This document shows positions 4,253-20,994 of a stretch of DNA of 52,900 nt, piece after piece (positions within the stretch are counted from its first letter, which is position 1; each line of letters begins with the position of its first letter). The stretch is from NCBI GenBank assembly GCA_050011875.1, contig JBEKIG010000017.1:1-52900 (forward strand), written 5' to 3'. A model generated the notes under the pieces. The model did no database searches and was not told the origin of the DNA. It worked only from the letters and a program-made list of their open reading frames with translations. The DNA is from Nitrososphaeria archaeon (GTDB lineage Archaea; Thermoproteota; Nitrososphaeria; JACIWG01). A program made the translations under genes and the position numbers.

Positions 4253-4517
4253 TGCAACACTTAGCAATTGAACTAAAGTGATCGTACAAGAGATAAATAG
4301 AAGTTTGATGACGTAATCATGAATTGGATGTGAAACTTGAGCTAAGACCTGAAATTGCATCAGCATATAGGAACCTGTAGAGATATGAAAGTCACTTAAA
4401 GGCAAAAAACTTATGCTAATTCTTTAATATCTAGAGCAACAGTATCGTATTCGAAGCTTACAAAAAAAGGGAGTGGACCCAGCCGCAAGACATATTTCTA
4501 ACCCATACTAGTTGTAA

Positions 4518-7508
4518 ATGCTCAACATGGAGAAAGAGGAACCGCCAAGGTACTCTCTCGTCAAGATAAAAGGTAGAGAAAATGAGGGTACGCTGTTTGT
4601 CATAGATTATGTCGACGGGCTCAGGGGAAAAAAGGCAGAGTTAAAATCAATTTCACTTGACTCTCAAATCATAAAAGGTGTACCCATCGAGCAACTGGAA
4701 TATGTTTCACCAATCACTCGTAATCCAATTGACTATTTCACCAAAGTTGTTGTTCAAGGGCTAGAGTCAAGAGTTGGAGAGATTGCCCATCCCGTCTTTC
4801 ATTGCAATACAATCTTCAAAGCTTACCAGTTCAGGCCACTGCTAAAGTACATTAAAAATCCTGATAGAAGATTATTAATAGCTGATGAAACCGGCTTAGG
4901 TAAGACAATAGAGGCCGGCTACATCATAATCAATGAGATGTCTGAAAGTGCTATTAAAAGAATTGTTATAATCTGTCCATCAAATATCGAGCGTAAATGG
5001 AAAGGAGAACTTTGGTACAGATTTGGTTTGAGATTTGATATCGTCTCAGGTAAAGAGCTCCTAAATCTGATTTCTAACCATGGAGAATTCTATTGCATTG
5101 CATCGATGGATTCCATCAGGTCATTCGGGGAAGACGAGCTATTTGGCCTTCCCCTTAAGAGTGAAATCGACTTGTTAATCATTGATGAGATTCATCATTT
5201 GATAGGTAGAGAAGGAGAGACACTAAGGCGCAAGCTTGGCTTGGCTTTGTCATCGATTTCGAAACGAGTAATCGGATTAACAGCAACGCCTATTCACCTT
5301 GATTTTCTTGATTTGAAAAGAATCTTCGATGTTATTTATCCAGGTTTCATAACAGAAGATAGATTTGAAAGAGAAATGCGAACTAATTCCCATCTGAACA
5401 GACTTTATCGAATCTTAAGTAAAAATGATTGGAATGGTGATGAATTGAAACATTTCTTAGATGAAGTAAGGGATTTTCAACAAGAGTTGAGCAGCCAGGA
5501 TGATTTGAATCAATTCATAGGGACGATGAAAGATAGAATCTTAGCGGTTAACGGGGACAAGAAGATTAGATACGGAATAAGGAAAGAAATTCGCGATAGA
5601 AACACTTTTTCGAAGATATTCACAAGAACAACAAAGGTTGAAGTAGGCGAAAAAAGGACAAGAGTCATCCGGAATGAAAAGATTTCACTAAGCTCCAACT
5701 TCTATGAAGCCTACCAAGAAGGCCGCCTAGTGAAGGTTTCAGAGAAGACACTATTCAAGGAGATTGATGATTTTGTTCAAAAATCATTCTATCCTGTACA
5801 TAGAAGACAACTATCTTCTTGTCTCCCTGCAATGATAAATCTTTTGCGTAATGGGATGAGAGGTTTCAACATTTGGATTAACGACGCATTGAATGAATTG
5901 GATGTGAGCTTAAATGAAAGCGAAAGGAACTACTGCATGGAGTTGGTAAACAAATCTGGTTTACTAAGGGAAGACAGTAAATGGAATAGATTGGTGGAAA
6001 CAATCAATGACCTACGCATTCATAAGTCCGCAAGAAAGGTAATAGTCTTCACAGAATGGATTCCCACTATCAACTACCTCACTCGAAGGAAAAATGACTT
6101 GGACTGTACTTGCTATGTTATCTCCGGCTTAGATAACGAAGAATCAAGATTCCTATCAGTGCAATCTTTTCAAAGACATGAAGGCTTTGCTGTCTTGTTC
6201 ACAACAGATGTTATGTCTGAAGGCATAGACCTCCAGAGTGCTGACTGTATTATAAATTACGATCTTCCTTACAACCCTCAAAAAATTGAGCAGAGGATTG
6301 GCAGAATTGACCGAGTTGGACAGAAATCGGAAACACTCCTAGTTATAAACATGATATTAGAGGAATCTACTGATGAAGCAGTCTATAATATCCTTCTTGA
6401 GAGGCTTGGTGTTTTTGAGGAGGCTATAGGTGATTTGCCTGATATTCTGTTAGAGAAAGTTGAGAGAAATAGTGTAATAGATGAAGACTCCGTCTTTCAA
6501 GCTTTAAGGGAATATGAGGTGAAGCATGAATTAATGCAGAGCGATTTGCTGGTAGGTATAGATGATGTACTCGATGATGAGATTCGAATAACGTATCTGC
6601 AAGACCAAAGGGATGAATATAAACTCAGATGGATGGTGTTTGAACGGTTTATGTACATACTCTTAGGAAAAGAGAAGCTGGATAAAGCCATACCAGATGG
6701 GTGTTCTTTAATTTTCCGAGAACTCGATTCATCAGATATAGACGTTTTATCAAACCTAGTACAAATAAACGAGAAAGCCTTAGTTCTCGCTGAACTTCAA
6801 AGTGCTGTAAGTAAGGATAGAACTCTCAGCATAGCTTTTCGAAAGGGTGCAGATGGTTTATACCTCACACCTTTCCATCCACTCATGCGGAAGGCAACGG
6901 AGATTTGCTACCAATCCTTCTATCAAGATATGAACCTTGATAGTGTTGAAACCGAGAATTTAGTTTTACGGGGTGACCTGGAGCGAGGAAAGGATAAAAC
7001 GAGGTTCCTCTTCTTGGTTGAATTTAAATTTGAAGGGGAGGTTTCGAAAAGTAGGGAATGGTTCTGGTGGTCATTTGATAAGAACGAGGAAACTAAAATT
7101 CTGGATACCTCGCCCTTAGAAGACTTGTGGAAGGGGTACAAAGAAAAGAAATTGTTGATTGAACTATCAACCATGGGTTATGAAAAACCAAGCTTACTCC
7201 AAAGTGAAATTCTCCGGAGGCTTGAAACTTGGAAAAATGAAATGGGGAAAAAGGATTTTGAAAATCATTTAGCAACGTGCAAGGCTGAAACGCAAAGGTT
7301 CAATGAGCAATTGCTTGAGATACAAAAGATGTTGAACCGTGAAACCGACTCAACAAAGGTCAATAGGCTTCAATCAGTAAAAAAGGAATTGGAAAGGAAG
7401 TTGGAGGATTCAAAATCTGTCTATAAAGAACTTCAATCCGGCCATCATTCTTATAAGGATGGTCGTTCAAGTTATCGTATTGTAATGGTGTTAAGTTTTG
7501 GGACATGA
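4518..7508 (+). CDS. SNF2-family (RapA/HepA-like) helicase, related to DrmD/DpdE types
   Basis: Motifs LIADETGLGKT, LLIIDEIHH, LTATP, SEGIDLQ and EQRIGRIDRVGQ, plus a C-terminal coiled coil. Confidence 0.92.
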   Translation: MLNMEKEEPPRYSLVKIKGRENEGTLFVIDYVDGLRGKKAELKSISLDSQIIKGVPIEQLEYVSPITRNPIDYFTKVVVQGLESRVGEIAHPVFHCNTIFKAYQFRPLLKYIKNPDRRLLIADETGLGKTIEAGYIIINEMSESAIKRIVIICPSNIERKWKGELWYRFGLRFDIVSGKELLNLISNHGEFYCIASMDSIRSFGEDELFGLPLKSEIDLLIIDEIHHLIGREGETLRRKLGLALSSISKRVIGLTATPIHLDFLDLKRIFDVIYPGFITEDRFEREMRTNSHLNRLYRILSKNDWNGDELKHFLDEVRDFQQELSSQDDLNQFIGTMKDRILAVNGDKKIRYGIRKEIRDRNTFSKIFTRTTKVEVGEKRTRVIRNEKISLSSNFYEAYQEGRLVKVSEKTLFKEIDDFVQKSFYPVHRRQLSSCLPAMINLLRNGMRGFNIWINDALNELDVSLNESERNYCMELVNKSGLLREDSKWNRLVETINDLRIHKSARKVIVFTEWIPTINYLTRRKNDLDCTCYVISGLDNEESRFLSVQSFQRHEGFAVLFTTDVMSEGIDLQSADCIINYDLPYNPQKIEQRIGRIDRVGQKSETLLVINMILEESTDEAVYNILLERLGVFEEAIGDLPDILLEKVERNSVIDEDSVFQALREYEVKHELMQSDLLVGIDDVLDDEIRITYLQDQRDEYKLRWMVFERFMYILLGKEKLDKAIPDGCSLIFRELDSSDIDVLSNLVQINEKALVLAELQSAVSKDRTLSIAFRKGADGLYLTPFHPLMRKATEICYQSFYQDMNLDSVETENLVLRGDLERGKDKTRFLFLVEFKFEGEVSKSREWFWWSFDKNEETKILDTSPLEDLWKGYKEKKLLIELSTMGYEKPSLLQSEILRRLETWKNEMGKKDFENHLATCKAETQRFNEQLLEIQKMLNRETDSTKVNRLQSVKKELERKLEDSKSVYKELQSGHHSYKDGRSSYRIVMVLSFGT

Positions 7509-10500
7509 ACCCCATGATGATTTTGTTTATTGCATAAAATGTCCTGAGAATAAAAGAACAGGGGATGAAAGGAGCCGATGTAGGAAAGAAGAGATTGAAG
7601 AGGACCAATGGGGAAAATGGACATGCTCCCGATGTAGGAGTGAAACGATAGGTTTACAATTAATCGATTTCATCAAAACAAGGATTTCGGTAACAGCAAC
7701 TGAGGATGAGGACCGTAGCAGGTTCATATTCAGAGAACTTCTTCAGAATGCTGACGATGTTAAATCCGTCATCCTAGTTCTACGATTTGAAGAAGATGCT
7801 CTATACGTAGCAAATGATGGAAGATCATTTACGACTACAATCGTCAACAACCAGTTAAGTGATTTTGATAGAATTTCTAGAATCTTAGGTAGACATCAAG
7901 CAGAGGACAAGGAAACCGTAGGCCATTTCAGTAGTGGTTTCCAAACCACGTATGCCATAACGAATTCACCCGAGGTTCACTCAAGTGGAATATCTGGGCA
8001 GATGAACCCTACAAGGAATACCTGGAACTATGAAATAGAAGAGAGGACTTCACCATACGTCCACAAAGAACGTAAAGGCGTCCTCTTCCGATTCCCTTGG
8101 AGGGACGACAATCGTGCTGAAGAAGAGATAGGTGGTATAAGGGCTTTTGAGGATTCAAATTACTGGCCTCGATGGAACGAAAAGGAAAGAAGAGGGCTTT
8201 ATGAAGACCTTAAGGGATATATTGCACAAGCTATACTCTGTTGTCAATACTTAGAAACAATACGTCTTATATGGCATGATGGAAGCCATTATGAAGGTTT
8301 CCAAGTTACTCGTGATTTTAAAACGAGGATTGATGATTCTGTACGACTTTCATTTGGATATGGATGGTTTTTAGGTATAGTTACACAGGGTCTTATAGAG
8401 CCTAAGACTTGGAAAGATGAATGGAACGAAAGCTTTCAAAGCGACGCATGGTCTTGGTGCAAGGGGATGCGGACCCTTCAATATCTGGTTGGGTACGCAA
8501 CTGTATCTGATAGTTCTGGAAAACCTTTGTATTTTGGGAAAAGACCGGATGGCTCATGTGTCGTAACTTCTAACCGTCAAGCTCTAGTCAAAGAATTGAA
8601 AAGAGGCGATATTCATCTACTCTTTCCTCTATTCGACATTACTACTCTCGATTCCAAATCTGACGGAAGAGCCTACCTCTATAGTGTTATACCTCTTCCT
8701 AAGAAAGGCCAAAACATGTTCGTCTTCACTGGGCATTTCTTCCCAACGGAAGATCGTAAGGATGTTGATGTCGAAGGCTATGGAGGTGTAAATAGAGAAT
8801 GGTACCAAACTGTGATGCTGAACGTTCTGTATTTGTATCAATACCTTTTCCCTTTCTTCTTAAAGGAAATTCAATCCCTCCAGGCTCCATCGGATGATTG
8901 TCAAAGAATCATTTTGAATTCAATCCCCGCCACGGTTCTCCCAGAGTGGATGAGACCCGGGAGGGAGGCGAAATCTGGATGGTGGGAGAAGGAACAAAAT
9001 CAGCTAATTAACTTCATTATTGATCAACCAATCTTTTTCACTAATGGTTCATGGATAAGCCCGATAAATGCTTATTGGGCTCAAAGTGATGATGAAAATG
9101 ATGTTCTGAAAACGATGAATATGAGAACTTTTACATCATCTTTCATTGAGCACCCCCATTTCAAAGCTTCATTGGCAAGCAAACTTGAATATAGGAAGCT
9201 AATAATAGCAGAAGATTTTCTCAGATTATGGGACGAGTTCGAAAGTAAGAACCATGACAACTCAGGCCAATTAATTTATCAACAAAGCCTCACTGGAGGA
9301 GGTATCCTTGATAAAGGAGCCGCCAATTCATTGATAAGATACTGCATTACAAGGGAAAACGCGTGGGATAAGACGACCAATCTTCCGATAATACCGGGAA
9401 AAGATAGTTTTTTGAGACCGATAAGGGAATACCCATTGTTACCGGAACAACTTGACTTCATGCTTGAAATAGTTCCTAAATCCAGACTAATCCATCCCGA
9501 TTTTAAATTATCTGAACTTAAAGAAAGAGTCAAACAACAAAGAGCCTCGACATACCTTGATGTAGTTAACCTGATTGATGAGATAGTTAATGAAAACCCA
9601 AGCCGCTTCTCTAACATGGATTCTAAGGATCATGCTCTTATCTCAAAGGTTTTAGTGACATTAGTGGAGAAAATGGGTTTTACCTTAAGTGAAAATATGA
9701 TCAATTTAAAATTCATACCTTATAAGCAAGGTAATTCAACTTCAATCGGGACTCCAAACACTCGGATAGTCAATGGTCATAAGGAGTTGATTAAAGGGGG
9801 CGCTCACATTGGAGAGAACTATATGAGAGATTCAATATTTGGTGTTCAGAGAATTCAAGTTCCAGGCATAACGCAAGAATTGGAAACTAAAATAAAGTTC
9901 CTCTCTATTCTTGGTTATGAAGAAGTATCTGAAATAGAAAATGCATTGTTTATCGTGAAGTTGATGGAGAATCCAAATGAACCGACCAATTTTATCAGAC
10001 ATTTTCTCTCACCTCGTCATGGATCGCTATTCAAAGATTCTATTCTCTGTGAATATATAGGAACTGATAATGTAGAGGTTATTCAAAAGAATAAAAAGGT
10101 TTTTCTAGACGCACTCAAATCATACTTTGACAGTCCAAAGAAAGAACAATACTTGACTCCAAAAGATATGTCTGGGGTTCCTTGTCTATATGATGAGGAA
10201 GGGAAATGGTATGGTGCTGGGGAATTTGCGCTTGAGATATATCCTGAATTAGAATTAATCGGCTATAAATCCCGGCATAAAGACTTTCAGAAATGGCCAA
10301 AAGAGACATTATTGGCTCTAGGTGCCGTTGAATCTCCTTCTTGTGCAAAAATCATTGAGGTCATCAGGAAATTAAGCCTAGAGAAGGAAAAAAATCGTAG
10401 AGTTCTAGCAGATATAGTAATTTGGCTACTTACATCGGATGTAGCTATAGACTCCGGGTTAAAAGAGATTGAAACATTAGCTTGGATTCCATCAACGGAT

Positions 10501-12651
10501 AAGGGGTATAGATGTGCTAATGACATTCTGATACCATATCCTAAAAATAAAGATATAATGGGAAAAGATTACGATGGATTCTTAGACGATTCTCCATGCA
10601 GCACAATAATTAGGACAAATGCCTCAATACGATTAAAAGAGAAGCCAATCAGCGATGAAAGAATAAAGTCTTTAAGTTTAAAAAGTTCTCCTAAACTCTC
10701 AGATATGCTAAATCTTGTAAAAGAACTACGCCTTTCAAATAGTGAGCCACCTCCTGACTTATTCAATGCACTTAATGAAATGATAGTTTCCAGTAAAGAG
10801 AGTAATCCTCGTATGGACGACTATGGATATTATTTTGAAAATAAATGGATTAGTTCTAAACGCATACGACTTATGGATGAAAAAGCAGTTCCGAAGGAGA
10901 TAAAAGGTGCTTTTACGATTCTTGATTCCAAGCATGAGCATCATGATTACTTACTTTTTGATGGAGCTAAAAATAGTCTATCTCTCGATGATTTGTTAAG
11001 TTCATTACTTAAGCCAGAAATTGTACCATCATTGAATCTATGGGATGAAATACGCAAGTATGAATCACAATTACAATGGAAACACAAAGAAATATATGGT
11101 CAACATCTAATTTATCCACTTAATAATTGCTTTGCAAACCCGGAAAATATCATCTGCCTTGAAAATGATCCTAAGAATTCCTTCTTGAATGAAGGGGTTT
11201 ACGGAAAGTATTTTGTCATCTCTCAGAATCTCACGGAAAGGCACGGAACAACCCTTAAAAAGTTAGGCGCTAGAAGCGATTCAGAACTTACCGAAGAAGA
11301 TATCATCGATTTGATTCGATTGGAAAAGCAAGGTTGGGATTCCATGGACTCTGAAAAAGTTCAAACTATCTTACATTTGATAACTAGGATAATAGAATTA
11401 AATCCAAAATTTCCATTTCCAAACCAACCATTATGGCCAGCTAGAATGGCTGGAGATTACATTTGGCTGGAACCCAAGTCCTGTTATGTGATGGATTCGT
11501 CTATTGGCAAATATTTTTCTGATTTGGCTTTTATATGCTTGGAACTAGACGGAAAGGAAAATGGATACCTAAGGGATTATGCAATCTTGAATGGATGCAA
11601 GAGGTTTAGTGAATTTTTAAAAAAGACAAGTCACCGAGATTTCGGGTTTAGTGAGCCTAACAAAGGCTTGACTAGTATCTTGAATGAGCTCGCTACGGTA
11701 CTTAGTATGCATTTCAAAACATTAACTGGGGCGTCTGAATGCTTCAGTTGGCTTAGAAACATAGAGGTTTATAATTGCGATGAACTAGATGTACATTATG
11801 CAATTCCTATGTTAGGGAAGACTTCTAACATAGTAACTCACGCGATTCCAAAATATGCTTTGATTGAGAAAACAGATACAAAATGGTTAATCCTCGTAAA
11901 TTTCGGTAACATCAAGGCATACGATGAACTAGTGGATGCAATAGTCGAAGAATGCATTGAAAGGGGTTTTCCGAAAGGCTCTGAAATTGATGAACTGACG
12001 TTTCTTATATATAAGCTTCTAAAAAATCCGCCAATTTCTTGGGGAGACCTAGTAGAGGGATACGAATTCCCTGAAGAAAATGTAGTTGGGTTGTACCAAC
12101 CATCTATCCTTGGTGTAGAAGGAGGTAAGGGTTATCTTGAAACTCGGCAGAAGCTCCAAGAATGGTATCACAGCTGTCAGATTTGTGGAAATCAGACTCC
12201 TGGGGATGAATCGGGCATTGATACAATGGAAACTGTGAAGAGCGTAGTCTCTATGAGAGGAGGCAGATATCGTAGTGTGCGCGCAGGGTATTCACCAGAT
12301 AACTGCCTTTTGTTATGCCCAATGCATCAAATACTGTATGAGAGAGGTTTGATAAGGTTCCCTGATTTTGAAGCAATCGAAGATATCGACATACTGCAAA
12401 GAATCGAACAGAAGATTGAAGAGTATGATAAGATTAAGACAGAGAACAGACAACAGAAGTTGTCCTGGAATTGTGAGGTATTTGAAGGAAAGTTTGACTG
12501 GTTCGGACAGCAAAGAATTTCAGGTGAAAATGTAAATAAGATTAGATGGAATCAAGAGAAGATAGCCTTTACAATGGAGCACCTTACCAGTTTCCTCAAA
12601 AATATGTTGAGCTACTTTAAGGAGGCTAAGAAAGTTCGTTCTGGTGAATGA
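7498..12651 (+). CDS. Sacsin/NOV-like GHKL (HSP90-like) ATPase with N-terminal Zn-finger and C-terminal HNH-like domain
   Basis: RELLQNADD (N-box), VANDGRSF (G1), VGHFSSGFQTTY (G2 variant) and GVLFRFPWR. N-terminal CIKC...CSRC. C-terminal CQIC...NCLLLCPMH. TTG start preceded by GGTG, overlapping the SNF2 stop. Confidence 0.85.
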   Translation: MGHEPHDDFVYCIKCPENKRTGDERSRCRKEEIEEDQWGKWTCSRCRSETIGLQLIDFIKTRISVTATEDEDRSRFIFRELLQNADDVKSVILVLRFEEDALYVANDGRSFTTTIVNNQLSDFDRISRILGRHQAEDKETVGHFSSGFQTTYAITNSPEVHSSGISGQMNPTRNTWNYEIEERTSPYVHKERKGVLFRFPWRDDNRAEEEIGGIRAFEDSNYWPRWNEKERRGLYEDLKGYIAQAILCCQYLETIRLIWHDGSHYEGFQVTRDFKTRIDDSVRLSFGYGWFLGIVTQGLIEPKTWKDEWNESFQSDAWSWCKGMRTLQYLVGYATVSDSSGKPLYFGKRPDGSCVVTSNRQALVKELKRGDIHLLFPLFDITTLDSKSDGRAYLYSVIPLPKKGQNMFVFTGHFFPTEDRKDVDVEGYGGVNREWYQTVMLNVLYLYQYLFPFFLKEIQSLQAPSDDCQRIILNSIPATVLPEWMRPGREAKSGWWEKEQNQLINFIIDQPIFFTNGSWISPINAYWAQSDDENDVLKTMNMRTFTSSFIEHPHFKASLASKLEYRKLIIAEDFLRLWDEFESKNHDNSGQLIYQQSLTGGGILDKGAANSLIRYCITRENAWDKTTNLPIIPGKDSFLRPIREYPLLPEQLDFMLEIVPKSRLIHPDFKLSELKERVKQQRASTYLDVVNLIDEIVNENPSRFSNMDSKDHALISKVLVTLVEKMGFTLSENMINLKFIPYKQGNSTSIGTPNTRIVNGHKELIKGGAHIGENYMRDSIFGVQRIQVPGITQELETKIKFLSILGYEEVSEIENALFIVKLMENPNEPTNFIRHFLSPRHGSLFKDSILCEYIGTDNVEVIQKNKKVFLDALKSYFDSPKKEQYLTPKDMSGVPCLYDEEGKWYGAGEFALEIYPELELIGYKSRHKDFQKWPKETLLALGAVESPSCAKIIEVIRKLSLEKEKNRRVLADIVIWLLTSDVAIDSGLKEIETLAWIPSTDKGYRCANDILIPYPKNKDIMGKDYDGFLDDSPCSTIIRTNASIRLKEKPISDERIKSLSLKSSPKLSDMLNLVKELRLSNSEPPPDLFNALNEMIVSSKESNPRMDDYGYYFENKWISSKRIRLMDEKAVPKEIKGAFTILDSKHEHHDYLLFDGAKNSLSLDDLLSSLLKPEIVPSLNLWDEIRKYESQLQWKHKEIYGQHLIYPLNNCFANPENIICLENDPKNSFLNEGVYGKYFVISQNLTERHGTTLKKLGARSDSELTEEDIIDLIRLEKQGWDSMDSEKVQTILHLITRIIELNPKFPFPNQPLWPARMAGDYIWLEPKSCYVMDSSIGKYFSDLAFICLELDGKENGYLRDYAILNGCKRFSEFLKKTSHRDFGFSEPNKGLTSILNELATVLSMHFKTLTGASECFSWLRNIEVYNCDELDVHYAIPMLGKTSNIVTHAIPKYALIEKTDTKWLILVNFGNIKAYDELVDAIVEECIERGFPKGSEIDELTFLIYKLLKNPPISWGDLVEGYEFPEENVVGLYQPSILGVEGGKGYLETRQKLQEWYHSCQICGNQTPGDESGIDTMETVKSVVSMRGGRYRSVRAGYSPDNCLLLCPMHQILYERGLIRFPDFEAIEDIDILQRIEQKIEEYDKIKTENRQQKLSWNCEVFEGKFDWFGQQRISGENVNKIRWNQEKIAFTMEHLTSFLKNMLSYFKEAKKVRSGE

Positions 12652-15600
12652 AGAGGTTATTAGCGATGACAAAAGAGCTAATCGATTGGGTTAACCTTAG
12701 AAAATTATACGAATTCGAATCCTCAAAGGTCTCAGGACCCGGGTCCTATAGAAGAGATATAAACGATGCTCTTTGGACCCTCGAAGAATTGGGACGCACT
12801 CTTTCCCTTTCTTCAAATGATATGAAAGATTTTGAGTACTTGATTGAAAAACTGCTGAAAAAGAAGAGCATCATGAAGATTCGAGGATTAGATTGCCCCG
12901 ATAGATATGTCACACGGACCGCTGAGATTGTTCGTCTGCTTGGGCATAACTACGAGTATTGGTACAGAGGAAGGCAAAGCATTGATTCTGTGAGATGGCT
13001 TATAGAGGATAAGAAGGTTCCGGATAGGAATATTCCTGTCGAAGATTTCACCAAGGCTTTGCTAGATATGGTATCATTGAAAATAGGAGATGGCTCCTCG
13101 ACTTTTAACCTAAAGACAGCTATCGAAGAAGTCATGCAAGGCGTTGCAGCATACTTTGAGCCTAAGGATTGGAAGAAGGCCAAGTTCTCAAAGTTCCAAT
13201 TGGAATCGACGAGAGAGATGATTCTTTCCCAGTTCAAGCCCGGGCATCAATACAAGGCTCAGATATTGACAGCTGGAGTCGGGTCGGGAAAGACCATAGC
13301 GTTCACCATTGGGATGCTCGTTTCAGCGGTAGAGGGCTTAAAGAGCGGGCAAGCACAACATAGGAGATGCCACATTTTCTTATATCCCAGGAAAGCGTTA
13401 GCTCAAGACCAATACACTAAACTAAAAGATATAGTTAAAAATATTCAACCTCTTCAGGTACATTTCGAACACTACAGTTTCTATAAAAAACACGAGAAGA
13501 AATCTGTTAAAGAAGGAATAGAGCAAATATATCAGGGCCCTAGCCCTCCACCAGACATCATCGTAATGACTTTAGAAACCCTCAACAGAAGACTACAACA
13601 TCCCATGATAATAGGAAAACTAGCTAAATACCTCAAGAGGGTTGTATTAGATGAAATCCATCTCGTAGAAGGCATCTCTGGTTGCCAAGTAATTAGGTTG
13701 TTGGCAAGGCTACGCCAAGCTTGTTATCCCAATGAAATCCTATGGACAGGATCCTCAGCAACTGTGGCAAACCCCGATTTGCACGCTATGACAGTATTCG
13801 GATTGGAGCAGCGAAATGATGTGAAAGTGATTGAGCCAAGCAATGAGAACCTAATTACTGTAGGACTTGTGCATCATGTCTTCGTGAGACCTAGCGGTCG
13901 ATTGTCCTCCTTAGGTACGCTAGTCAACTCAACAAGTATATTAACACATAACAGAAGGCAATATATTTGGGATAGAGATGCTAATTATCCCAAAACCATA
14001 GGCTTCGCGGACAATCTGGAAATTCTCGGTCGATGGAACTCAGAATTCAGAGAAAACGAGAGAACAGAAAAGGCTTCTGACCGAATTCATCCTAACGTGG
14101 AAAACCCAAGCAATTGGCAGAAGAGACAAAGGGAAATCCCGTACGCCCTGAGGTTTAATAGACCACTAGAACGCAGGATAAATGCAGTTGGGGGCAAGCC
14201 TAAGTCAGAGGAGTATGAACCTGTTCTACAGGACTTTAAGAACGATAGAGTTTGTGAAAAGTGCAAGCAAGGAGAACGAATAAAACTCAAGACCTGTGAT
14301 AGGAAGGAATTACAACAGTTAGGAAGATTGGTGTATCGAGAGCCACACAAGGAAGAAGACGATGTCAAGATTTTTCATATTAATAATAAGAACGTTTTTG
14401 AGACAGATTCAATGGAGATAGGGACTCTAGATTTATGCCCTTATCTTAAATCTGGGACATGCTTTTGGTTCGCTCAGGACGATTTTAAATCAGAACTAAT
14501 CGAAGGGTTTTCTTACGAATGGAGGAGTATTGCACGATCTAGAATCCATTCTTCCAAAACGAGTCAAATCAAACCAAATCAAACCAAATCAGATTCAGAA
14601 CTTGATGATGATCTTAGTGACTTAGTTTTTTCTGCGACAATCGAGGAAGTTTATGATTTCCCTAAGTCGGAACAAGTTATCCCTATAGATGTAGTCCTTG
14701 CTTCACCGAGCTTGGAAGTAGGAATTGATCTCCCGAATGTAACAGAAAGTGTCATGTTTAAGGCAATCAGGAGTGTTGCATCTTATAGGCAGAAAGTGGG
14801 TAGAATAGGAAGAGAAATGGATTCCGATGTAATGAATGTTAACCTTCTGTCACTTAGACCGATAGATCTCCATTACTATAGACAACCTAGAAAATTAACG
14901 AGCATTGCGCGGCTGGACCCAATACCTCTTAAAGAACATAATGATTCCATCTTGCGTTGCGCCCTTTATATGGCTGTTTGGGACTGTCTTTCCCTGAATT
15001 CTAATCTACCCGAAGTTATACCGCTCGGTGGATTGTTCGAGAATGAGACCCAATTCACGCAAAGGCTGAAGATTTCAAGGAATTATTTAAATGAGAATAG
15101 AGCGAACATAGCTTGGTATCTTTCGGGAATCGCTAGGCTAAGATTTAAAGCGAGTGATTCTATAATCCAAGAAGCCATAAATCAAGTTGCAGATGAAATC
15201 GATGTCTTCCTTACCACGACTAAGGGTACAATAGAAAATGAATGCATTTCGCATGTCTCAGATATAGTCGCACACTCCTTAAGTCCCTATGGGGCAAAAC
15301 TCCACACAGTTAAACAAACAAAGAGCTTAGACAGAGTAAGAATAGGAGAAGATGAATATAAACTCTACAGGCCTGGAATTAACCCTGTTTTATTTAACCT
15401 ATCAAAGGAATTTCAAGATTTGGACTGCTTCAATGAATCAGGATGGGTAGATATTTCACGTTTAAAAGAAATACATCAACGCATTGGGGATTTAATTAAG
15501 AACCAAAGTAATGATGAGGAGATGGAAGACCTAGAAGCACTAAAGGACCTAAACAGTATTGCTCTTCGACACATCATTGAAGGCTTGGAAGGAATGGAAA

Positions 15601-18476
15601 AATTGGGGCAGAACCCTCTCGTTATCTACTTCTTGGAGCAGTTCAACAGTTTTCGGACTAAGCGTCCATATTGGCCATATTATTTGTCATACACATTACA
15701 AGGTATGCCTATTTTCAATGCACTAAGAACAAGGAGACACCGCGACTATACACGACCACCTAACTTGTTTACCAATCCTTATGAAGAAACTGTCACACTC
15801 ATCGGGAAACATGGAATTGAGGACAATGTCAAAATTAGCGAGGCATTATTTGGGTTCATCCCTGGAACATGGTCTTTCAGGCAAGGTAAGGTGCCAAAGA
15901 AGATTCTGTGCGGGAAGCTAAGACCTTCTCGAGGTGGGGTCCTTACCGCGAGTCTTGAGACCATGGAATCTGTTGGCAACGATTTCGACAAAATCCAGAC
16001 CAATGTACCTACGCCTCCTGGCTTTTCAGGAAATCTCCTTGACATCTATATGCCAAGAAAAATAGCGCTCAACGACGTTAATCGTAAGTACGTTGGACTC
16101 AACCCAGGACCAAGGACAGTTTTTGATTGGGATGAAGATTCAGCTAAAGAATCTAAAGAGGCTGTTTCTGCTGATATCATGGATGAGGCTTCAGTCAATA
16201 ACAAACACCCAATGGTCAAAATCCCTTCAAGCTTTCCAAACCGATGGGTACACATAATACCTGATAAGGGTACCAGAATTTTAGTTAATGATCTTAATGA
16301 GAACAACTTGGTAATAGAAGAAGAGAAGGTTCTCAAAGGTTATGACGCGCGAGTGAGGATATTTCATCCGATGCTGAAACAGATTGTGGACTCTATCAGT
16401 TGGCATGACCATCTCGAAGTGTATGACTACGTTTTCTCAGTCTCACGAATCTATTCATCAAAAATAGTCAATAACGCAACCTTGATGTTTCAAACGAACA
16501 AACAAAAAGACATAGCTTTTGGACGTTTCTACGAAACTGAGGGTGTTTCTATCACGTTGAACCCTTCCACAGTCAAAGCTGCATTTTCAAGAATCAAAGA
16601 AGAAATGTTACTCCATAAGGACAAATGGGTTCCTTCTATTATGAAGGCATTCATGGCGCTCTTATGTTCAAAGAGGTTACCTGATGGAACTCCTGTAAGC
16701 CCATTTATGGTCGATAATCTAGTTGGTGTGCTTATTACTACGATTCCTTTGGACTTTGATAGCAGAGCAATATACGAACTTCCAGAAAAAATGGCAAGTT
16801 TACTAGCAGATGAAAGTAAGTTCAGAGAAATAGCTGAGAAATATTACAGAGGGAAATACCTTATAGATTTAGACGAGGAAGGACCTTGGATATCCGAATC
16901 ATCAACACAAGATATGCAAGACCTAAAGACCGCGGTGGAAAATTTGGTCGGATTTGCGATGCAGCTCAAAGATGAAATCCCAGACGTAAAAAGTAATCTC
17001 GAAAATTGGATTACCCGTACGCTCCTTAACACGTTTGGAGTGGCCGCTTTGTCTGCCTTGCAGCGATTGTGTGGAAGTGAGGAGGATATCATAGGGTATA
17101 CAATAGACCTCGAGGGTATAAATAAAGGAGAGTATAGAATTTTCCTCTATGACAGGACGCATTATGGAAATGGCAGCAGCGACGTATTAAAGAAATATCT
17201 GTACATTTTGAATATACAGAGACACGGACAGACAGATGAATCTAGGTTATTACCATCAGAAGACTACTTGACTTTATTGGAACAGGAGTTGCTTCAATGC
17301 CCTCAATTTCACACCGATATGGACGCACTAGAAAAGCTCACCCAGAAACAAAAAGGGCAACAAGTGATAGGTTTACCTGAGCTTGCTTTTGTAGGAGAAC
17401 AATCAGATGAAGTTTTACGTGTATGTGAGGATACATGGAAGCAACTTGGAATACGCGGGAGAGCTGACGCATGGAAATTGCCAATAATTTCGCTTGCACC
17501 AGGCAGTTTTGCTCATCTCAGAGGTATTGAAGTTGATGATGTAATCAGGGCTACTAACGTGTGCTGGAACGGATGCCCTGAATGTGTGATTGGCGCTGAG
17601 GGTAAGACTTTTATTGACAAAGCCATACTCGATGAATGGTTCAAGCTGGCAAGAGAAGGAGTCAATGAATACAAGACGGTCTCCATCGAAGATATTGCGG
17701 TTGGAAAATCTCGTGTCGAAATTGGGATGCAATCAAAGGTATGTTTAGAACTACCGAATAGAAAGATAAGGTCCATCTCACTTCCGTTTACGATAGGGTT
17801 CGAATTAGAAAGAGATCAAGTTCCTCCGCATGCCAGACTCCTAATCAGGGATGACGATATACAGGGTTTCAGGGCTTTCGAAGAATCACAGAAGAGTGCT
17901 CATGGGATAGAGTCATCAGGTTTTAAAAGAATCATGTGGTATAACCTCATGACATCAGCGTATCTTGATATACTAGGTCTATTGGGAAAGGAACGCAAGG
18001 AAATCGCCTTAGTGTTCTATGACTGTCGGGATGTTAGTTTTGATGATGTGGGGATTTCGCCAAGAATGATTCAGGTGATAGAATACCACTGCAAAAAGGT
18101 AGGTATGAGGGGTGAGATAAATAGACTGTCTGACATATTAGTTTGGCTTGCAAGACAAGGGTTCAGGCTTTCCTTATGTGTCGACCAGACACAGTGCCAA
18201 GAAGAAAGTGTCAGAGGATTCCTAGCCAAGCTTTCGGAGATAGAAATGAGCAATATCAGTATCATGGTCAAAGGGTTGCAAGGCTCGATGCACAAGAAAG
18301 CTATGATAACGCCTGTCGGCGTTATTCAAGGATCTGCTAATCTAACATACTCTGGCACGGGTTTAAACGAAGAGATTATTAACTACGCTCCTTACGGCGT
18401 ACGAGAATACGAAGAAATGAAGTTAAGTATATTGGACACATTCCATGGGAGCGAAAAGTGGAGGCAGACAAATTGA
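12648..18476 (+). CDS. Large SF2 DEAH helicase fused to a DUF1998-type Zn domain and a C-terminal PLD-family nuclease (DpdJ+DpdK-like, or DrmA/B/C-like, in one chain)
   Basis: AGVGSGKT, YPRKALAQDQ, VVLDEIH, SSAT, SLEVGID and QKVGRIGR. DUF1998-like TLLNTFG...RIFLYDRTHYGNGS...CWNGCPEC. PLD-like MHKKAMIT...IQGSANLT. ATGA overlap with the upstream gene. Confidence 0.88.
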   Translation: MKRLLAMTKELIDWVNLRKLYEFESSKVSGPGSYRRDINDALWTLEELGRTLSLSSNDMKDFEYLIEKLLKKKSIMKIRGLDCPDRYVTRTAEIVRLLGHNYEYWYRGRQSIDSVRWLIEDKKVPDRNIPVEDFTKALLDMVSLKIGDGSSTFNLKTAIEEVMQGVAAYFEPKDWKKAKFSKFQLESTREMILSQFKPGHQYKAQILTAGVGSGKTIAFTIGMLVSAVEGLKSGQAQHRRCHIFLYPRKALAQDQYTKLKDIVKNIQPLQVHFEHYSFYKKHEKKSVKEGIEQIYQGPSPPPDIIVMTLETLNRRLQHPMIIGKLAKYLKRVVLDEIHLVEGISGCQVIRLLARLRQACYPNEILWTGSSATVANPDLHAMTVFGLEQRNDVKVIEPSNENLITVGLVHHVFVRPSGRLSSLGTLVNSTSILTHNRRQYIWDRDANYPKTIGFADNLEILGRWNSEFRENERTEKASDRIHPNVENPSNWQKRQREIPYALRFNRPLERRINAVGGKPKSEEYEPVLQDFKNDRVCEKCKQGERIKLKTCDRKELQQLGRLVYREPHKEEDDVKIFHINNKNVFETDSMEIGTLDLCPYLKSGTCFWFAQDDFKSELIEGFSYEWRSIARSRIHSSKTSQIKPNQTKSDSELDDDLSDLVFSATIEEVYDFPKSEQVIPIDVVLASPSLEVGIDLPNVTESVMFKAIRSVASYRQKVGRIGREMDSDVMNVNLLSLRPIDLHYYRQPRKLTSIARLDPIPLKEHNDSILRCALYMAVWDCLSLNSNLPEVIPLGGLFENETQFTQRLKISRNYLNENRANIAWYLSGIARLRFKASDSIIQEAINQVADEIDVFLTTTKGTIENECISHVSDIVAHSLSPYGAKLHTVKQTKSLDRVRIGEDEYKLYRPGINPVLFNLSKEFQDLDCFNESGWVDISRLKEIHQRIGDLIKNQSNDEEMEDLEALKDLNSIALRHIIEGLEGMEKLGQNPLVIYFLEQFNSFRTKRPYWPYYLSYTLQGMPIFNALRTRRHRDYTRPPNLFTNPYEETVTLIGKHGIEDNVKISEALFGFIPGTWSFRQGKVPKKILCGKLRPSRGGVLTASLETMESVGNDFDKIQTNVPTPPGFSGNLLDIYMPRKIALNDVNRKYVGLNPGPRTVFDWDEDSAKESKEAVSADIMDEASVNNKHPMVKIPSSFPNRWVHIIPDKGTRILVNDLNENNLVIEEEKVLKGYDARVRIFHPMLKQIVDSISWHDHLEVYDYVFSVSRIYSSKIVNNATLMFQTNKQKDIAFGRFYETEGVSITLNPSTVKAAFSRIKEEMLLHKDKWVPSIMKAFMALLCSKRLPDGTPVSPFMVDNLVGVLITTIPLDFDSRAIYELPEKMASLLADESKFREIAEKYYRGKYLIDLDEEGPWISESSTQDMQDLKTAVENLVGFAMQLKDEIPDVKSNLENWITRTLLNTFGVAALSALQRLCGSEEDIIGYTIDLEGINKGEYRIFLYDRTHYGNGSSDVLKKYLYILNIQRHGQTDESRLLPSEDYLTLLEQELLQCPQFHTDMDALEKLTQKQKGQQVIGLPELAFVGEQSDEVLRVCEDTWKQLGIRGRADAWKLPIISLAPGSFAHLRGIEVDDVIRATNVCWNGCPECVIGAEGKTFIDKAILDEWFKLAREGVNEYKTVSIEDIAVGKSRVEIGMQSKVCLELPNRKIRSISLPFTIGFELERDQVPPHARLLIRDDDIQGFRAFEESQKSAHGIESSGFKRIMWYNLMTSAYLDILGLLGKERKEIALVFYDCRDVSFDDVGISPRMIQVIEYHCKKVGMRGEINRLSDILVWLARQGFRLSLCVDQTQCQEESVRGFLAKLSEIEMSNISIMVKGLQGSMHKKAMITPVGVIQGSANLTYSGTGLNEEIINYAPYGVREYEEMKLSILDTFHGSEKWRQTN
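14565..14590 (+). repeat. Short tandem repeat CAAAT-CAAAC x2.6 inside the helicase gene
   Basis: caaatcaaac caaatcaaac caaatc. The 5/10-bp unit is not a multiple of 3 and encodes QIKPNQTKS. Confidence 0.7.
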
Positions 18477-18503
18477 CGATTAATAAGAAGGCGACTTAGC
18501 ATA

Positions 18504-20339
18504 ATGGCTCTAACAGTAGGTGACATTTTCAGTGGAGCAGGTGGGTTTTCAGAAGGCTTCAGGCAAGCTGGATTCAAGATAAAATGGGCTGTAGACAACT
18601 GGCTACCAGCAGCTGAAACCTTTGAGAAGAATTTAGGTGTGGAGGTCATCAAAAAAGATGCTACTGATATAGATTTTAAAGAGTTAGAACATGTTGACGT
18701 TTTGATTGGGAGCCCTCCATGCCAGGATTTCTCTCTAGCTAACAATGGTGGTAACGGCGATGTAGAAGTAGGAATGAAGCTGGTAAGTAAGTTCCTTGAA
18801 GCAGTATTGAAGCTCAAACCAGATTATTGGATTATGGAGAACGTCCCTAATCTGAGGAGGATATTGGTTAGTCGCATGAAAGTAGGTTCCATTAATCTTC
18901 CTAATGGGATTCTAAGACCTCAGATGACTTTCCTTAATTCAGCGGATTACGGTGTTCCACAAAAAAGGTTTAGATTATTTACAGGGGCTTTCCCCAAACC
19001 GGAGCAGACTCATTGGAAGGATGGAAATCACGGATTAGAACAGGTACCTAGATGGAAATCGATGAGAGATGTCATTGAATCTCTCCCTCATCCTATAAGT
19101 GAGCTTAAATATACAGATATGGTTAAAGACCCTGTTTATGATATTCAAATACCAGCGGATAAGTTGACGAATCAATTATCTAACTCATATTTTACAGAAG
19201 AACAAGTGTTCTCGTGCCGAAAAAATAAGGAAGATCATATCTGGGCAGGGAAAATGTGCTTCCCTGATAATCCTGACCTACCTTCAAGAACTATCACAGC
19301 ACAAAATTACAAATCAGGAAGACAAACAATAGTGATAGAAGACAAGTTATCGCACGGGACCCATTATAGAGGGCCAACATTGAGAGAACAAGCTTCTTTC
19401 CAGTCTTTCCCAATAACCTATCAGTTTTGGGGAAAGACCATCACCGAAAGGAACCGATTAGTTGGGAATGCTGTTCCTCCCCTATTAGCTTTTGCGTTGG
19501 CTAAAGCTATATTGAAGGACAAAGGTTTTGATGCACCAGATAAGCCTGAAGTAAGCAGTATATTGAAGGAGACCCCTTTTGCCGTGGTAACTACTACGAT
19601 GACTAATAGGAATCGCATAGCCCCATTGAATCGGAAGTTCAGGGATTATATCCCTGGCTCTAAGACTGGCTCCCAAAAGGATGCTTGTAGAGTTGACTTG
19701 GACAATAAAGGAAGAAAACCCAGAAAACACCCAATGATGAGATTTGATACCCTAAATAGCAATAATCAGTGTATTAAACATCTCGTTGAATGGGAAACTG
19801 TGTTATATACAGGTTATGCTGAAAGCTTTAAATTTTCGCCTATCAAATTAAAAGATGCACTTCAGCTGATTGTACAGGCAGAACATGATGGACTAATCGA
19901 CTATAATACTGTAATCTCCTTTATCGACGATTTACAGGAGTTGCCACATACAATTCCAGATGCAAGTACTCTCCAAGCCGTCAGAGCAGGAAGGTGGGAA
20001 AAGGTTCTAACCACACCTTATAAGTTAATGGATATTATTCGAGATAAAGTCAATTATCATTTCGCTATAGAATCCTTTGATTGGTCGAAGAGAATAAAAA
20101 AACCAAATCCCATAAAAATCTCCCCAAAAACAGGAATACCTGTTAGAACGGCAGCATACCTCCTAGCGTGTTCATTTGTTTGCGAAATACTCAACGAGAG
20201 CGATATCTGGATTAAAGAGAATTGGGCCCTGCATTTTAACTATGGAGAATGGCCACAAATCGAATACCCACACCCTATAGAACCCGAATGGAATGGACAT
20301 ATTGCTTTGAAGGAAGAGATCCAAAAACAACTTGAGTGA
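18504..20339 (+). CDS. DNA (cytosine-5) methyltransferase with ~270-aa C-terminal extension
   Basis: Motif I DIFSGAGG, IV GSPPCQDFS, VI MENV, VIII QKRFRLF, IX REQASFQSFP and X GNAVPP, followed by an extra domain. Confidence 0.95.
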   Translation: MALTVGDIFSGAGGFSEGFRQAGFKIKWAVDNWLPAAETFEKNLGVEVIKKDATDIDFKELEHVDVLIGSPPCQDFSLANNGGNGDVEVGMKLVSKFLEAVLKLKPDYWIMENVPNLRRILVSRMKVGSINLPNGILRPQMTFLNSADYGVPQKRFRLFTGAFPKPEQTHWKDGNHGLEQVPRWKSMRDVIESLPHPISELKYTDMVKDPVYDIQIPADKLTNQLSNSYFTEEQVFSCRKNKEDHIWAGKMCFPDNPDLPSRTITAQNYKSGRQTIVIEDKLSHGTHYRGPTLREQASFQSFPITYQFWGKTITERNRLVGNAVPPLLAFALAKAILKDKGFDAPDKPEVSSILKETPFAVVTTTMTNRNRIAPLNRKFRDYIPGSKTGSQKDACRVDLDNKGRKPRKHPMMRFDTLNSNNQCIKHLVEWETVLYTGYAESFKFSPIKLKDALQLIVQAEHDGLIDYNTVISFIDDLQELPHTIPDASTLQAVRAGRWEKVLTTPYKLMDIIRDKVNYHFAIESFDWSKRIKKPNPIKISPKTGIPVRTAAYLLACSFVCEILNESDIWIKENWALHFNYGEWPQIEYPHPIEPEWNGHIALKEEIQKQLE

Positions 20340-20343
20340 TACA

Positions 20344-20994
20344 TCAATCATCTTTAATTTTTGCTAGCCTTTCATATTCCATGCAGCAATCCCTTACAGG
20401 ACATACGTCATGTCTTGTGTTTACCGCCTTGCAAACTAGAGCCCCGAAATCTATTAGCATAGAATAGAACTGTCGTAAATCCACATCTTCATCTTCAGAC
20501 ATGCTAATGAGGTGTCCTTTTATTGTTTCCAAATCCTTTGTCCCAAACAATCGAGAGATTATCCTCATTATGTTTGTATCCACCAGTACATCTTGCTCAT
20601 TAAAAGCAAAAATCCTGACAGCCGAAGCTGTGTACTCGCCAACCCCTGGCAACATTTTCAAGCTTTCCTTATCCCTAGGTAATCCTGCGGAGTACCTCTT
20701 TTCAACAAGTTTAGCTAGTTCCTTTACCTCATCAACCCTCGAAATGATACCGAGGGGTTTCATAACTTCTATGAGACTTTTCCTATCCGCTCTTAATATG
20801 TGATTAGGAGTTGGGAACCTCTCAACAAACTCTGTGAATACCCTCTTCACGACAACTGTCCTAGTTTGTCTAAGGAAAAATTCTGCAATAAGTATTTGAA
20901 AAGGAGTAACACCTTTCATACGCCATGGAAAATTCCTCCTATTGTCTTGATACCATCGCAGCAGAGCATTCCTTATGTATCTATGGTTATTCAA
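20344..20994 (-). CDS. HhH-GPD DNA glycosylase, MIG (T:G mismatch)/MutY-like, lacking the MutY C-terminal domain
   Basis: RRNFPWR, AEFFLRQT (Arg as in MIG rather than the LQQT of MutY), HhH LPGVGEYTA and VDTN. FeS-loop variant at the C-terminus. 216 aa, convergent on the 5mC methyltransferase. Confidence 0.85.
   Translation of the reverse strand: MNNHRYIRNALLRWYQDNRRNFPWRMKGVTPFQILIAEFFLRQTRTVVVKRVFTEFVERFPTPNHILRADRKSLIEVMKPLGIISRVDEVKELAKLVEKRYSAGLPRDKESLKMLPGVGEYTASAVRIFAFNEQDVLVDTNIMRIISRLFGTKDLETIKGHLISMSEDEDVDLRQFYSMLIDFGALVCKAVNTRHDVCPVRDCCMEYERLAKIKDD

Follow-up and report, generated by a model that had tools for sequence, protein, structure and literature searches.

An archaea-centred cassette that joins a DISARM/Dpd-type helicase-nuclease core and a Tiamat-like GHKL ATPase to a C5 DNA methyltransferase

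Do five adjacent genes in the genome of a Nitrososphaeria archaeon make up one defence machine, and is that machine among those already catalogued? The genes occupy positions 4518-20994 of contig JBEKIG010000017.1 (assembly GCA_050011875.1), within a stretch of 52,900 nucleotides that was analysed whole and that we call the window. Judged by its sequence, the cassette is a conserved, archaea-centred and 5-methylcytosine (5mC)-associated system of the DISARM/Dpd type built around a Tiamat-like GHKL protein, and it is partly foreshadowed in two recent preprints (Yuan et al., bioRxiv 2026, 10.64898/2026.09.30.754977; Bell et al.). The reading that we favour, with a probability of roughly 0.68, is that of an innate immune cassette of archaea that moves horizontally, is associated with methylation and has two modules. 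The first would be a restriction core, three large proteins inherited tightly together, and the second an exchangeable self-marking unit composed of a Dcm-type C5 methyltransferase and a T:G repair enzyme.

The gene for an SNF2 ATPase (4518-7508, forward strand; 996 residues) overlaps by 11 bp the TTG start of the gene for a sacsin/Tiamat-like GHKL ATPase (7498-12651, forward; 1717 residues), which in turn shares a 4-bp ATGA overlap with the gene for a YprA-family helicase fused to a phospholipase D (PLD)-type nuclease (12648-18476, forward; 1942 residues). A gap of 27 bp separates the latter from a C5 methyltransferase gene (18504-20339, forward; 611 residues), which converges with a gene for an HhH-GPD glycosylase (20344-20994, reverse; 216 residues), their stop codons lying 4 bp apart. 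We re-read the coordinates and the junctions from the sequence and found the five open reading frames (ORFs) exactly as in a preliminary description of this DNA, which had proposed them as an undescribed archaeal defence system. With 611-1942 codons in the four longer frames at about 40% G+C (GC), significant family hits and conservation in other genomes, the ORFs lie far beyond chance. The domain calls made in that description for the five proteins are likewise borne out by Pfam, PADLOC and NCBIfam, or by fold in the case of an HNH-like region, and the three ATPases that it named (SNF2, GHKL and helicase) all have intact catalytic motifs. PADLOC and NCBIfam results are given throughout as profile scores of single proteins against models, with the NCBIfam equivalog cut-offs taken as class thresholds.

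Evidence that the three large proteins form a unit comes from related loci. These were collected by a scan of genome contigs and by a scan of metagenomes anchored on family-specific C-terminal motifs of a five-sequence alignment (16 loci). The genome-contig scan, which used a full-length alignment and generic sacsin motifs, holds at least two true members among the 80 matches listed, one in a metagenome-assembled genome (MAG) of Thaumarchaeota (L001) and one in a MAG of Bathyarchaeota (L002). Removal of the window itself (L082, 100% identity) and of L088, L092 and L094 (the first two equivalent to L087 and L091, the third closely similar to L093) leaves 14 non-redundant loci; L019, considered as a distant member, was dropped because its tblastn match covers residues 77-273 only. 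Co-occurrence of the homologues, on which the earlier proposal hinged, is what we observe: the core genes lie side by side, all three of them, at 12 of the 14 loci. At ten (L001, L002, L083, L084, L086, L087, L089, L090, L091 and L093) they are colinear on one strand, in the order SNF2, sacsin-like, helicase-PLD, and at L096 and L097 the trio is complete with an inverted helicase-PLD gene. The full set does not fit on the remaining two contigs: that of L085 (2.1 kb) runs from the end of the sacsin-like gene into the start of the helicase gene, and that of L095 (4.8 kb) holds the end of the sacsin-like gene together with a methyltransferase gene and an SNF2 gene that is inverted. L096 and L097 further stand out as a divergent subtype: their core proteins share 21-34% identity with those of the window, and the helicase-PLD gene is convergent with the sacsin-like gene.

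The distances among core proteins correlate tightly (r 0.92-0.98, Mantel p <= 0.0008, 5000 permutations) across the nine loci that have a methyltransferase and could be compared, in which some proteins are truncated at contig ends. This co-divergence points to the three proteins acting as an obligate machine. The corresponding correlations of the methyltransferase are loose, and this difference suggests that the core is a co-inherited unit, with the methylation and repair unit kept nearby but exchanged.

By its motifs and profile matches, the SNF2 protein is placed in the RapA/BrxHII-like SNF2 group, as a RapA/DrmD/DpdE-like ATPase. Its Pfam domains are SNF2-rel_dom, ResIII and Helicase_C, with Walker A (DETGLGKT) at residues 123-130, motif II (DEIHH) at 223 and motif VI (QRIGRIDRVGQ) at 592. 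The best named match is DrmD (PADLOC, 1.3e-75), followed by DpdE (3.3e-47), and HmaA is matched as well (PADLOC, 1.5e-48); the best solved relative is RapA (2e-26). Scores against the NCBIfam equivalog models reach 230.1 bits for DISARM_DrmD (NF038317; cut-off 610) and 161.1 bits for DpdE (cut-off 500). SNF2 proteins 27-30% identical to this one over about 590 residues also occur in three bacterial MAGs (L037, L042 and L076), 1-3 kb upstream of the N-terminus of a sacsin-type ATPase. No helicase resembling that of the cassette is found at these three loci, which look like other pairings of SNF2 and Tiamat-like proteins in bacteria.

The helicase-PLD protein is predicted to be a DpdJ-like YprA-family helicase that keeps a zinc cluster and carries a DpdK-like PLD nuclease on the same chain. 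Pfam finds DEAD, Helicase_C and PLDc_2, the last at 27.8 bits (cut-off 27), and a sub-threshold match to MZB/DUF1998 (18.3 bits, cut-off 24.2). The helicase core (13254-14813, forward; residues 203-722) contains the motifs GVGSGKT (210-216), DEIH (335-338), SAT (at 370) and QKVGRIGR (at 715), together with an inserted module of four cysteines (C536, C539, C597 and C605). In PADLOC the match to DpdJ (2.1e-46) is far ahead of partial matches to DrmA (8e-15) and DruE (6.7e-15), and the likeness to DpdJ extends into the region N-terminal to the helicase core. The C-terminus matches DpdK (3.3e-10) and DrmC (6e-5). The NCBIfam models for DpdJ and DpdK score 154.3 bits (3.2e-45) and 40.6 bits (1.9e-10), with cut-offs of 800 and 100. 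The solved relative YprA/MrfA (6znp) is matched at 2.7e-11, and the look-alikes in the ESM Atlas, which serve as a lead only, include a 'DpdJ family' cluster.

Further along the chain lie a DUF1998/MZB-type zinc cluster of four cysteines (17298-17585, forward; C1551, C1639, C1643 and C1646) and a single PLD/HKD nuclease motif (18126-18380, forward; HKK...GSANLT, with H1882-K-K1884 and G1895-S-A-N1898). In all eight full-length family members compared, the helicase motifs listed above (Walker A, the DExH box, SAT and QKVGRIGR) and both four-cysteine sets are invariant, as are the PLD residues H1882, K1884, G1895, A1897 and N1898. Pfam detects PLDc_2 in 8/8 of these members and MZB in 4/8 (best E 2.8e-4), and the DUF1998 call is backed by these MZB hits and by the invariant cysteine cluster. 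As far as the sequences tell, the PLD domain is the sole clear nuclease of the cassette.

The protein between these two motors is of the sacsin type. Its sacsin-type ATPase domain (residues 75-171) scores 34.9 bits against Pfam SACS (cut-off 32.8) and falls just short of the cut-off of NCBIfam P_loop_sacsin (49.6, cut-off 50), and its profile matches the sacsin structures 5v44-47 at 2e-11. In PADLOC it matches TmtA (Tiamat) models only, and with the N-terminus alone (about residues 63-207; 3.5e-20). The chain comprises an N-terminal CxxC...CxxC pair (C12, C15, C43 and C46), a Bergerat ATP site that is invariant in the family alignment (RELLQNADD, 79-87; GHFSSGFQT, 142-150) and a long middle region, after which come a putative Wss1-like fold and, at the C-terminus, an HNH-like zinc module. 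Some 60 full-length homologues are available, 60 of 64 non-self hits covering at least 91% of the query at 27-56% identity.

The two C-terminal fold matches rest on a structural model of the last 420 residues (pLDDT 75.5). A Wss1/SprT-like zincin fold (11638-12060, forward; residues about 1381-1521) resembles Wss1 (5xbn, Z 5.2 over 97 residues), AQ_1354 (Z 5.2) and SPRTN (6mdx, Z 4.1), weak scores in a commonly seen range; no HExxH motif occurs there or anywhere else in the protein, and the region is presumed to be a pseudo-protease. The HNH-like beta-beta-alpha zinc module (12118-12618, forward; residues about 1541-1707) compares best with TagI (Z 8.8, rmsd 3.3 over 107 residues), then with McrA (Z 5.7), VcaM4I (Z 5.3) and the HNH domain of Cas9 (Z 5.0), and Foldseek returns TagI (probability 0.94) and Cap5 (0.87), with E-values of just 0.1 or weaker. 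The fold thus agrees with the HNH-like C-terminus of the preliminary description, though Pfam finds no HNH in the protein. An invariant signature, C1560-x2-C1563 ... E1578 ... N1602 ... C1607-P-x-H1610, marks the module, in which H1610 presumably takes the place of the fourth zinc ligand of the canonical HNH motif. The histidines that would serve as general base and as metal ligand are both unconserved, so the module probably binds DNA as a zinc finger and has no catalytic role. The earlier count of up to two nucleases therefore shrinks, probably to one.

An exhaustive profile search with the C-terminal 420 residues recovered 102 proteins in 1.84 billion representatives; 46 of the 102, each of at least 1,300 residues, carry the module at their C-terminus or close to it, and the others are shorter entries. 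All five distant long members tested also carry a sacsin domain. No relative was found in the viral contigs scanned with the C-terminal alignment. A complex prediction for the C-terminal module (181 residues) with helicase residues 1-780 gave no answer (score 0.00, mark 0.32) and is evidence neither way.

The fold matches bring in an alternative: the core would be modification-dependent (type IV-like) and attack foreign DNA with modified cytosines, and the methyltransferase would serve another purpose. TagI, McrA and VcaM4I, the best C-terminal fold matches, are all modification-dependent HNH endonucleases. In such enzymes, however, the HNH domain is the cutter and not the reader, and here the module is without catalytic histidines. 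A Pfam scan of the five proteins detected no SRA, EVE or other known reader domain, and a host with its own 5mC methyltransferase would lay its DNA open to such an attack. We regard this explanation as the least probable of those considered, and hardly credible.

The fourth protein is a predicted C5 (Dcm-type) DNA methyltransferase, with motifs I, IV, VI and X in place. It scores 165.7 bits against Pfam DNA_methylase (PF00145; cut-off 22; 2.4e-48) and 123.4 against TIGR00675 (cut-off 100.65), and its catalytic part (residues 1-338) contains FSGAGG at 9, PPCQ at 71 (Cys73), ENV at 112, QKRFR at 153 and GNAVPP (motif X) at 321. PADLOC matches comprise DrmMII (1.5e-34), DruM (5.3e-40) and generic type II models (4.5e-60). 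The best solved relative, M.HaeIII, aligns just over catalytic residues 7-166 and gives no guide to the target motif. Beyond the catalytic part lies an extension of about 270 residues (for example PDASTLQA at 485), which is conserved in the window, L001, L087, L091 and L093, and partly in L083. Elsewhere a word-based search of limited reach found it in six other proteins. For two of these six the longest contigs (22,345 and 26,257 bp) have lengths identical to those listed for two homologues of the sacsin-like protein (P0007 and P0008), which suggests, without proving it, that they share contigs. An AlphaFold model of the whole methyltransferase (seven-row alignment) has a mean pLDDT of 52 and is unusable for the fold of the extension. 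The exact methyltransferase sequence is also recorded on two contigs in the protein collection, the longer of 570,544 bp, so a longer assembly of the same or a very close genome exists.

The glycosylase is putatively a T:G mismatch enzyme of the Mig type. It has E38 in AEFFLRQT, a helix-hairpin-helix GVG at 117, D139 in VDTN and a C-terminal cysteine cluster from C188. Its best solved relative is the G-T mismatch enzyme of Methanothermobacter (1kea; 5.2e-30 over residues 9-210 of 216), at a score almost equalled by MutY cores (7.9e-29); it is without the MutY C-terminal domain, and reaches 154 bits against NCBIfam mutY (cut-off 286). In PADLOC it matches a REase_II 'nicking endonuclease' model over its full length (4.8e-32). 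The T:G role is supported by its place beside a 5mC methyltransferase, where other loci carry Vsr. For Mig itself, the gene lies next to that of a GGCC methyltransferase on a plasmid of Methanothermobacter.

A C5 methyltransferase is found in 10 of the 14 non-redundant loci, and in the four without one (L085, L089, L090 and L096) the contig ends in or beside the core. In L087, L091 and L093, as in the window, the gene is downstream and co-oriented, with a gap of about 27-110 bp after the helicase-PLD gene; elsewhere it is placed downstream on the opposite strand in L084; upstream of the core in L001, L002, L083, L086 and L097; and past the inverted SNF2 gene in L095. Vsr sits beside the methyltransferase in six loci (L001, L002, L084, L087, L091 and L093), and the HhH-GPD glycosylase takes its place in the window and L083 only; in L086 neither is present within the visible 1.5 kb. 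The preliminary description had counted both enzymes as components of the system. For the glycosylase this is true of the window and L083, and it is not a fixed part, Vsr replacing it in six loci; the methyltransferase is a recurrent component by its presence in most loci, but one loosely coupled to the core.

All named relatives of the cassette are archaeal, which together with the nurA-herA-mre11-rad50 operon that follows it in the window marks the host as an archaeon. The cassette is conserved across several archaeal lineages, including a family member in Methanonatronarchaeum sp. AMET6-2 (RefSeq WP_247139939.1) on a 1.4-Mb contig. Close to home it is rare, being found in one of 41 relatives, one of 401 genomes of the phylum and one of 335 high-quality genomes, each time the window's own genome. 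In a same-genus genome (G001, 94% complete) the left flank of the window (548-4303) is colinear with contig C6, which continues into metabolic genes; the colinearity stops about 200 bp before the SNF2 start, and no match to window positions 4.3-23.8 kb was found in the DNA of that genome. The GC content is 36-42% over 3-24 kb, compared with 43-47% further along the window. Beside the cassette at other loci we find a GmrSD_N protein (L089, 876-2507), a 665-residue AAA_5 (McrB-like) ATPase followed by a 431-residue ORF (L001, 19594-22883) and a small HNH endonuclease (L090, 26-604).

These settings bear on whether the cassette could instead be a housekeeping or mobile-element DNA machine, serving repair or recombination, chromatin remodelling or plasmid maintenance, in which a MutL-like GHKL ATPase recruits helicases. 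YprA/MrfA, RapA, Vsr and the Mig/MutY relatives do have repair or transcription roles, the window cassette lies near the nurA-herA-mre11-rad50 operon (24034-30551, after the cassette), and the Tiamat preprint draws a likeness to MutL loading UvrD (Yuan et al.). However, a single occurrence among the sampled genomes of the phylum and none found in the same-genus genome is not what a housekeeping role would lead one to expect, the nurA operon does not neighbour the cassette at other loci (a NurA query matched none of them), and the genes that flank the cassette there are type IV restriction genes. The best models, moreover, are the defence clades DpdJ and DrmD and not the repair YprA group. We consider a housekeeping origin very improbable.

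Returning to the immune reading, the closest characterised families, DISARM, Dpd and Tiamat, are all anti-phage according to the sources consulted. We infer a defence function, methylation as the self-mark, formation of a complex and a DNA-sensing subunit. The methyltransferase would mark host DNA, and Vsr at most loci, or the Mig-type glycosylase in the window, would repair the T:G mismatches that arise from deamination of 5-methylcytosine. Incoming DNA without the mark, or single-stranded ends left exposed, as in DISARM, would be engaged by the helicase and Tiamat-like proteins, the latter, if other GHKL proteins are a guide, probably working as a dimeric clamp or switch gated by ATP, and the SNF2 protein would act as a RapA/DrmD/DpdE-like translocase. 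ATP-driven translocation and unwinding would then feed the DNA to the PLD nuclease for cutting. With one HKD motif per chain, the nuclease would have to dimerise.

Several observations weigh against this reading. The correlation of methyltransferase with core distances is r 0.51-0.61 (p 0.02-0.04), in part owing to the outlier L097. The methyltransferase of the window resembles the enzymes of distant loci more than those of L083 and L084, the loci closest to the window by their core; the enzymes of L002, L095 and L097 are 22-25% identical to it, those of L084 and L086 align with it in the catalytic part only, and position and strand vary among loci. The methyltransferase may thus be a swappable neighbour rather than a gate. 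In DISARM, according to the results of Bravo et al. that we drew on, the PLD protein DrmC is non-essential, restriction extends to phages without methylation sites and DrmAB tells DNA apart by its structure, so that a simple logic of 'unmethylated means cut' may not apply. Family alignments of the Tiamat-like protein show no conserved histidine at the two canonical HNH catalytic places. In L002 (6943-20900) all three core genes are split into two or three ORFs, and this copy is either decaying or hit by assembly frameshifts. On the right-hand side of the island the relevant pieces of the same-genus genome lie on other contigs and give no boundary, and the sequencing runs listed for the locus are three DNA runs from peat metagenomes, two of them possible sources of it, and no RNA run.

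Some of these points would be expected if two independent neighbours had been taken for one system, that is, a methylation-independent helicase-nuclease defence core that senses DNA structure or ends, and an unrelated Dcm-type methyltransferase with Vsr or Mig, which would be either an orphan pair for modification and repair or what is left of a type II restriction-modification system, and would simply share the island. The weak co-divergence of the methyltransferase, set against the values within the core, and its changing position, strand and type fit this arrangement, and no methyltransferase is listed for the Type IV-B neighbourhood in the main text of the Tiamat preprint (Yuan et al.). 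It is the DISARM results of Bravo et al., as far as they were available to us, that make a methylation-independent core the main rival. Against it stand the recurrence of the C5 enzyme at every locus that is not cut by a contig end and the lack of a separate restriction endonuclease gene beside it. The family-specific extension of the methyltransferase, moreover, recurs in distant loci and in very few proteins elsewhere, and the short co-oriented spacing behind the helicase-PLD gene is kept in four loci including the window. On balance we think it unlikely that the two parts are independent.

A bolder version of the immune reading would make the Tiamat-like GHKL protein the organising sensor. 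Its dead HNH module would read DNA methylation or structure and license the SNF2 and YprA motors and the PLD nuclease, and the methyltransferase, equipped with a docking domain of its own at the C-terminus and served by a dedicated enzyme for T:G repair, would be a plug-in specificity cartridge, the whole forming a distinct archaea-centred class of the DISARM/Dpd type. We offer this version tentatively and think it more probably wrong than right. If true, it would be the first time that a sacsin-type ATPase is given a defined job within a restriction machine of several subunits, and the sacsin/NO VEIN family would gain a prokaryotic model.

How far is the cassette new? It has no complete match in the catalogues, as none of the PADLOC or NCBIfam models is fully matched and the scores on the Drm and Dpd equivalogs lie far below the cut-offs. 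The word 'undescribed' in the preliminary description is nevertheless too strong, given that the HNH-like proteins of Type IV-A and the helicase-nuclease fusion of Type IV-B in the Tiamat preprint precede it. A literature search for the gene combination returned only this preprint as relevant, and the main text of the YprA preprint does not mention sacsin, GHKL, HATPase or cytosine (Bell et al.).

The likeness to DISARM lies in the DrmD-like SNF2 protein, the YprA-family helicase with a DUF1998 zinc module, the PLD domain and the setting in a defence island; a methyltransferase is in the operon too, though generic type II models and DruM match it better than DrmMII does. The cassette differs in that helicase, DUF1998 and PLD are on one chain of 1942 residues (a fusion kept in 8/8 members) and not in separate DrmA, DrmB and DrmC genes; DISARM, in the account of Bell et al. 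as far as we could consult it, is the only YprA branch consistently split into separate genes. It differs further in a helicase that scores far better on DpdJ than on DrmA, in an SNF2 protein that misses the DrmD equivalog cut-off and in the added Tiamat-like GHKL protein. The cassette also joins a DrmD-like SNF2 protein with a C5, not an adenine, methyltransferase; the two DISARM classes reportedly pair DrmD with DrmMI and DrmE with DrmMII. As to Dpd, the helicase is DpdJ-like, the PLD domain DpdK-like, and the SNF2 protein also matches DpdE, but all three equivalog cut-offs are missed, the PLD domain is fused to the helicase and the self-mark is presumably 5mC. No match to the 7-deazaguanine genes DpdA, DpdB and DpdC was found among the five proteins and the tested flanking ORFs, the rest of the genome not having been searched, and none to DpdD, F, G, H or I among the five proteins.

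With Tiamat (TmtA) the cassette shares the N-terminal sacsin-type GHL ATPase of its second protein. As described in the preprint, the Tiamat architecture consists of a GHL ATPase, a Wss1-like pseudo-protease fold and an effector domain (Yuan et al.), and the canonical form is a single-gene system with a C-terminal PD-(D/E)xK (NOV_C/DUF3883) nuclease. Pfam gives no hit to that nuclease in the protein of the cassette, whose C-terminus folds HNH-like instead. In the Type IV-A Tiamat-like proteins, from bacteria and archaea, an HNH-like fold, typically without catalytic residues, is said to replace the nuclease (Yuan et al.). The second protein of the cassette fits that class by its HNH-like module without recognisable catalytic residues in place of PD-(D/E)xK, and the weakly matched Wss1-like region ahead of the module may correspond to the pseudo-protease fold; in the parts of the preprint available to us this is the closest prior description. 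The Type IV-B neighbourhood has a helicase fused to a nuclease (Yuan et al.), and the neighbourhood of the cassette, compared by the main-text description only, likely corresponds to it, although that text names no set of methyltransferase, SNF2, DpdJ-PLD, Vsr or Mig. Methyltransferases are given there for the Tiamat-like neighbourhoods I-H, I-J, I-K, II-C and III-C (Yuan et al.). Type III-C, with a Tiamat-like protein, a cytosine methyltransferase, DrmA and DrmB, is a precedent for a 5mC-marking setting of the DISARM type; as far as the description goes, it differs from the cassette in a Tiamat-like protein with a C-terminal helicase, in the presence of GajB and in separate DrmA and DrmB, and no SNF2 or PLD fusion is described for it.

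Other systems share smaller parts. Hma has a comparable trio, in which HmaA is the helicase, HmaB the m5C methyltransferase and HmaC the ATPase, but was rejected as a label: HmaC is a DUF499/BrxC-type ATPase that the GHKL protein does not match, and Hma is without a YprA-PLD protein. The Dcm-Vsr pairs and the methyltransferase-Mig pair of Methanothermobacter likewise set a C5 methyltransferase beside a T:G mismatch repair enzyme, and in the cassette such a pair is attached to a helicase-nuclease core and not to a type II endonuclease. Going by the partial sources at hand, Druantia type III has a YprA-family helicase with a C-terminally fused PLD nuclease, and in ARMADA a nuclease is likewise fused to the C-terminus of a YprA helicase, which has a RapA/BrxHII-like helicase as its partner; ARMADA has a PglX-like adenine methyltransferase and a Vsr-type fused nuclease where the cassette has a C5 enzyme and PLD. 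On the same sources ARMADA, BRIGADE and Druantia are set apart by methyltransferase, nuclease or helicase clade. Of the Druantia type II set (DruE, DruF, DruG and DruM), none of the five proteins matches DruF or DruG at E <= 0.01, the DruE match being weak and partial and the DruM match generic.

The cassette bears on the triggering logic of DISARM, Dpd and Druantia, in all of which YprA helicases are central. Tiamat/sacsin-type GHL ATPases are found in single-gene bacterial defence and in eukaryotic proteins (sacsin, NO VEIN), and the cassette links both lines. The alternation of Vsr with a Mig-type glycosylase offers a natural example of two unrelated repair enzymes recruited against the mutational cost of a 5mC self-mark. 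The cassette further adds to the little-studied field of archaeal defence, and the Methanonatronarchaeum sp. AMET6-2 member may open an experimental route.

Rfam and tRNA scans of the window returned nothing, and some neighbouring genes deserve mention in their own right. Directly upstream of the SNF2 gene, a 255-residue ORF (3155-3922, forward) has faint CasR/WYL-like PADLOC hits (E 0.004-0.006) and no Pfam match, and is not conserved in other loci; WYL-type regulators are mentioned near some Tiamat systems in the parts of the preprint consulted (Yuan et al., 10.64898/2026.09.30.754977). At 21230-23586, within the segment unmatched in the same-genus genome, lie an HD-CE/HD-domain gene (379 residues; PF24391, 4.9e-27) and an adjoining 403-residue ORF with no family hit. 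These two have no PADLOC match and do not accompany the cassette in other loci, and may be a separate two-gene conflict system.

In the operon that follows, the nurA region is 92% identical to another contig of the same-genus genome, and herA, mre11 and rad50 are matched in that genome by fragments of about 69% identity only, with 64-68% identity in a same-family genome (G002). This mismatch could reflect an assembly gap or a replaced operon. Further on, a gene for a 1094-residue MMPL-family transporter (40681-43965, reverse) lies in a patch of 52-59% GC within the window of about 40% GC and may have been acquired horizontally.

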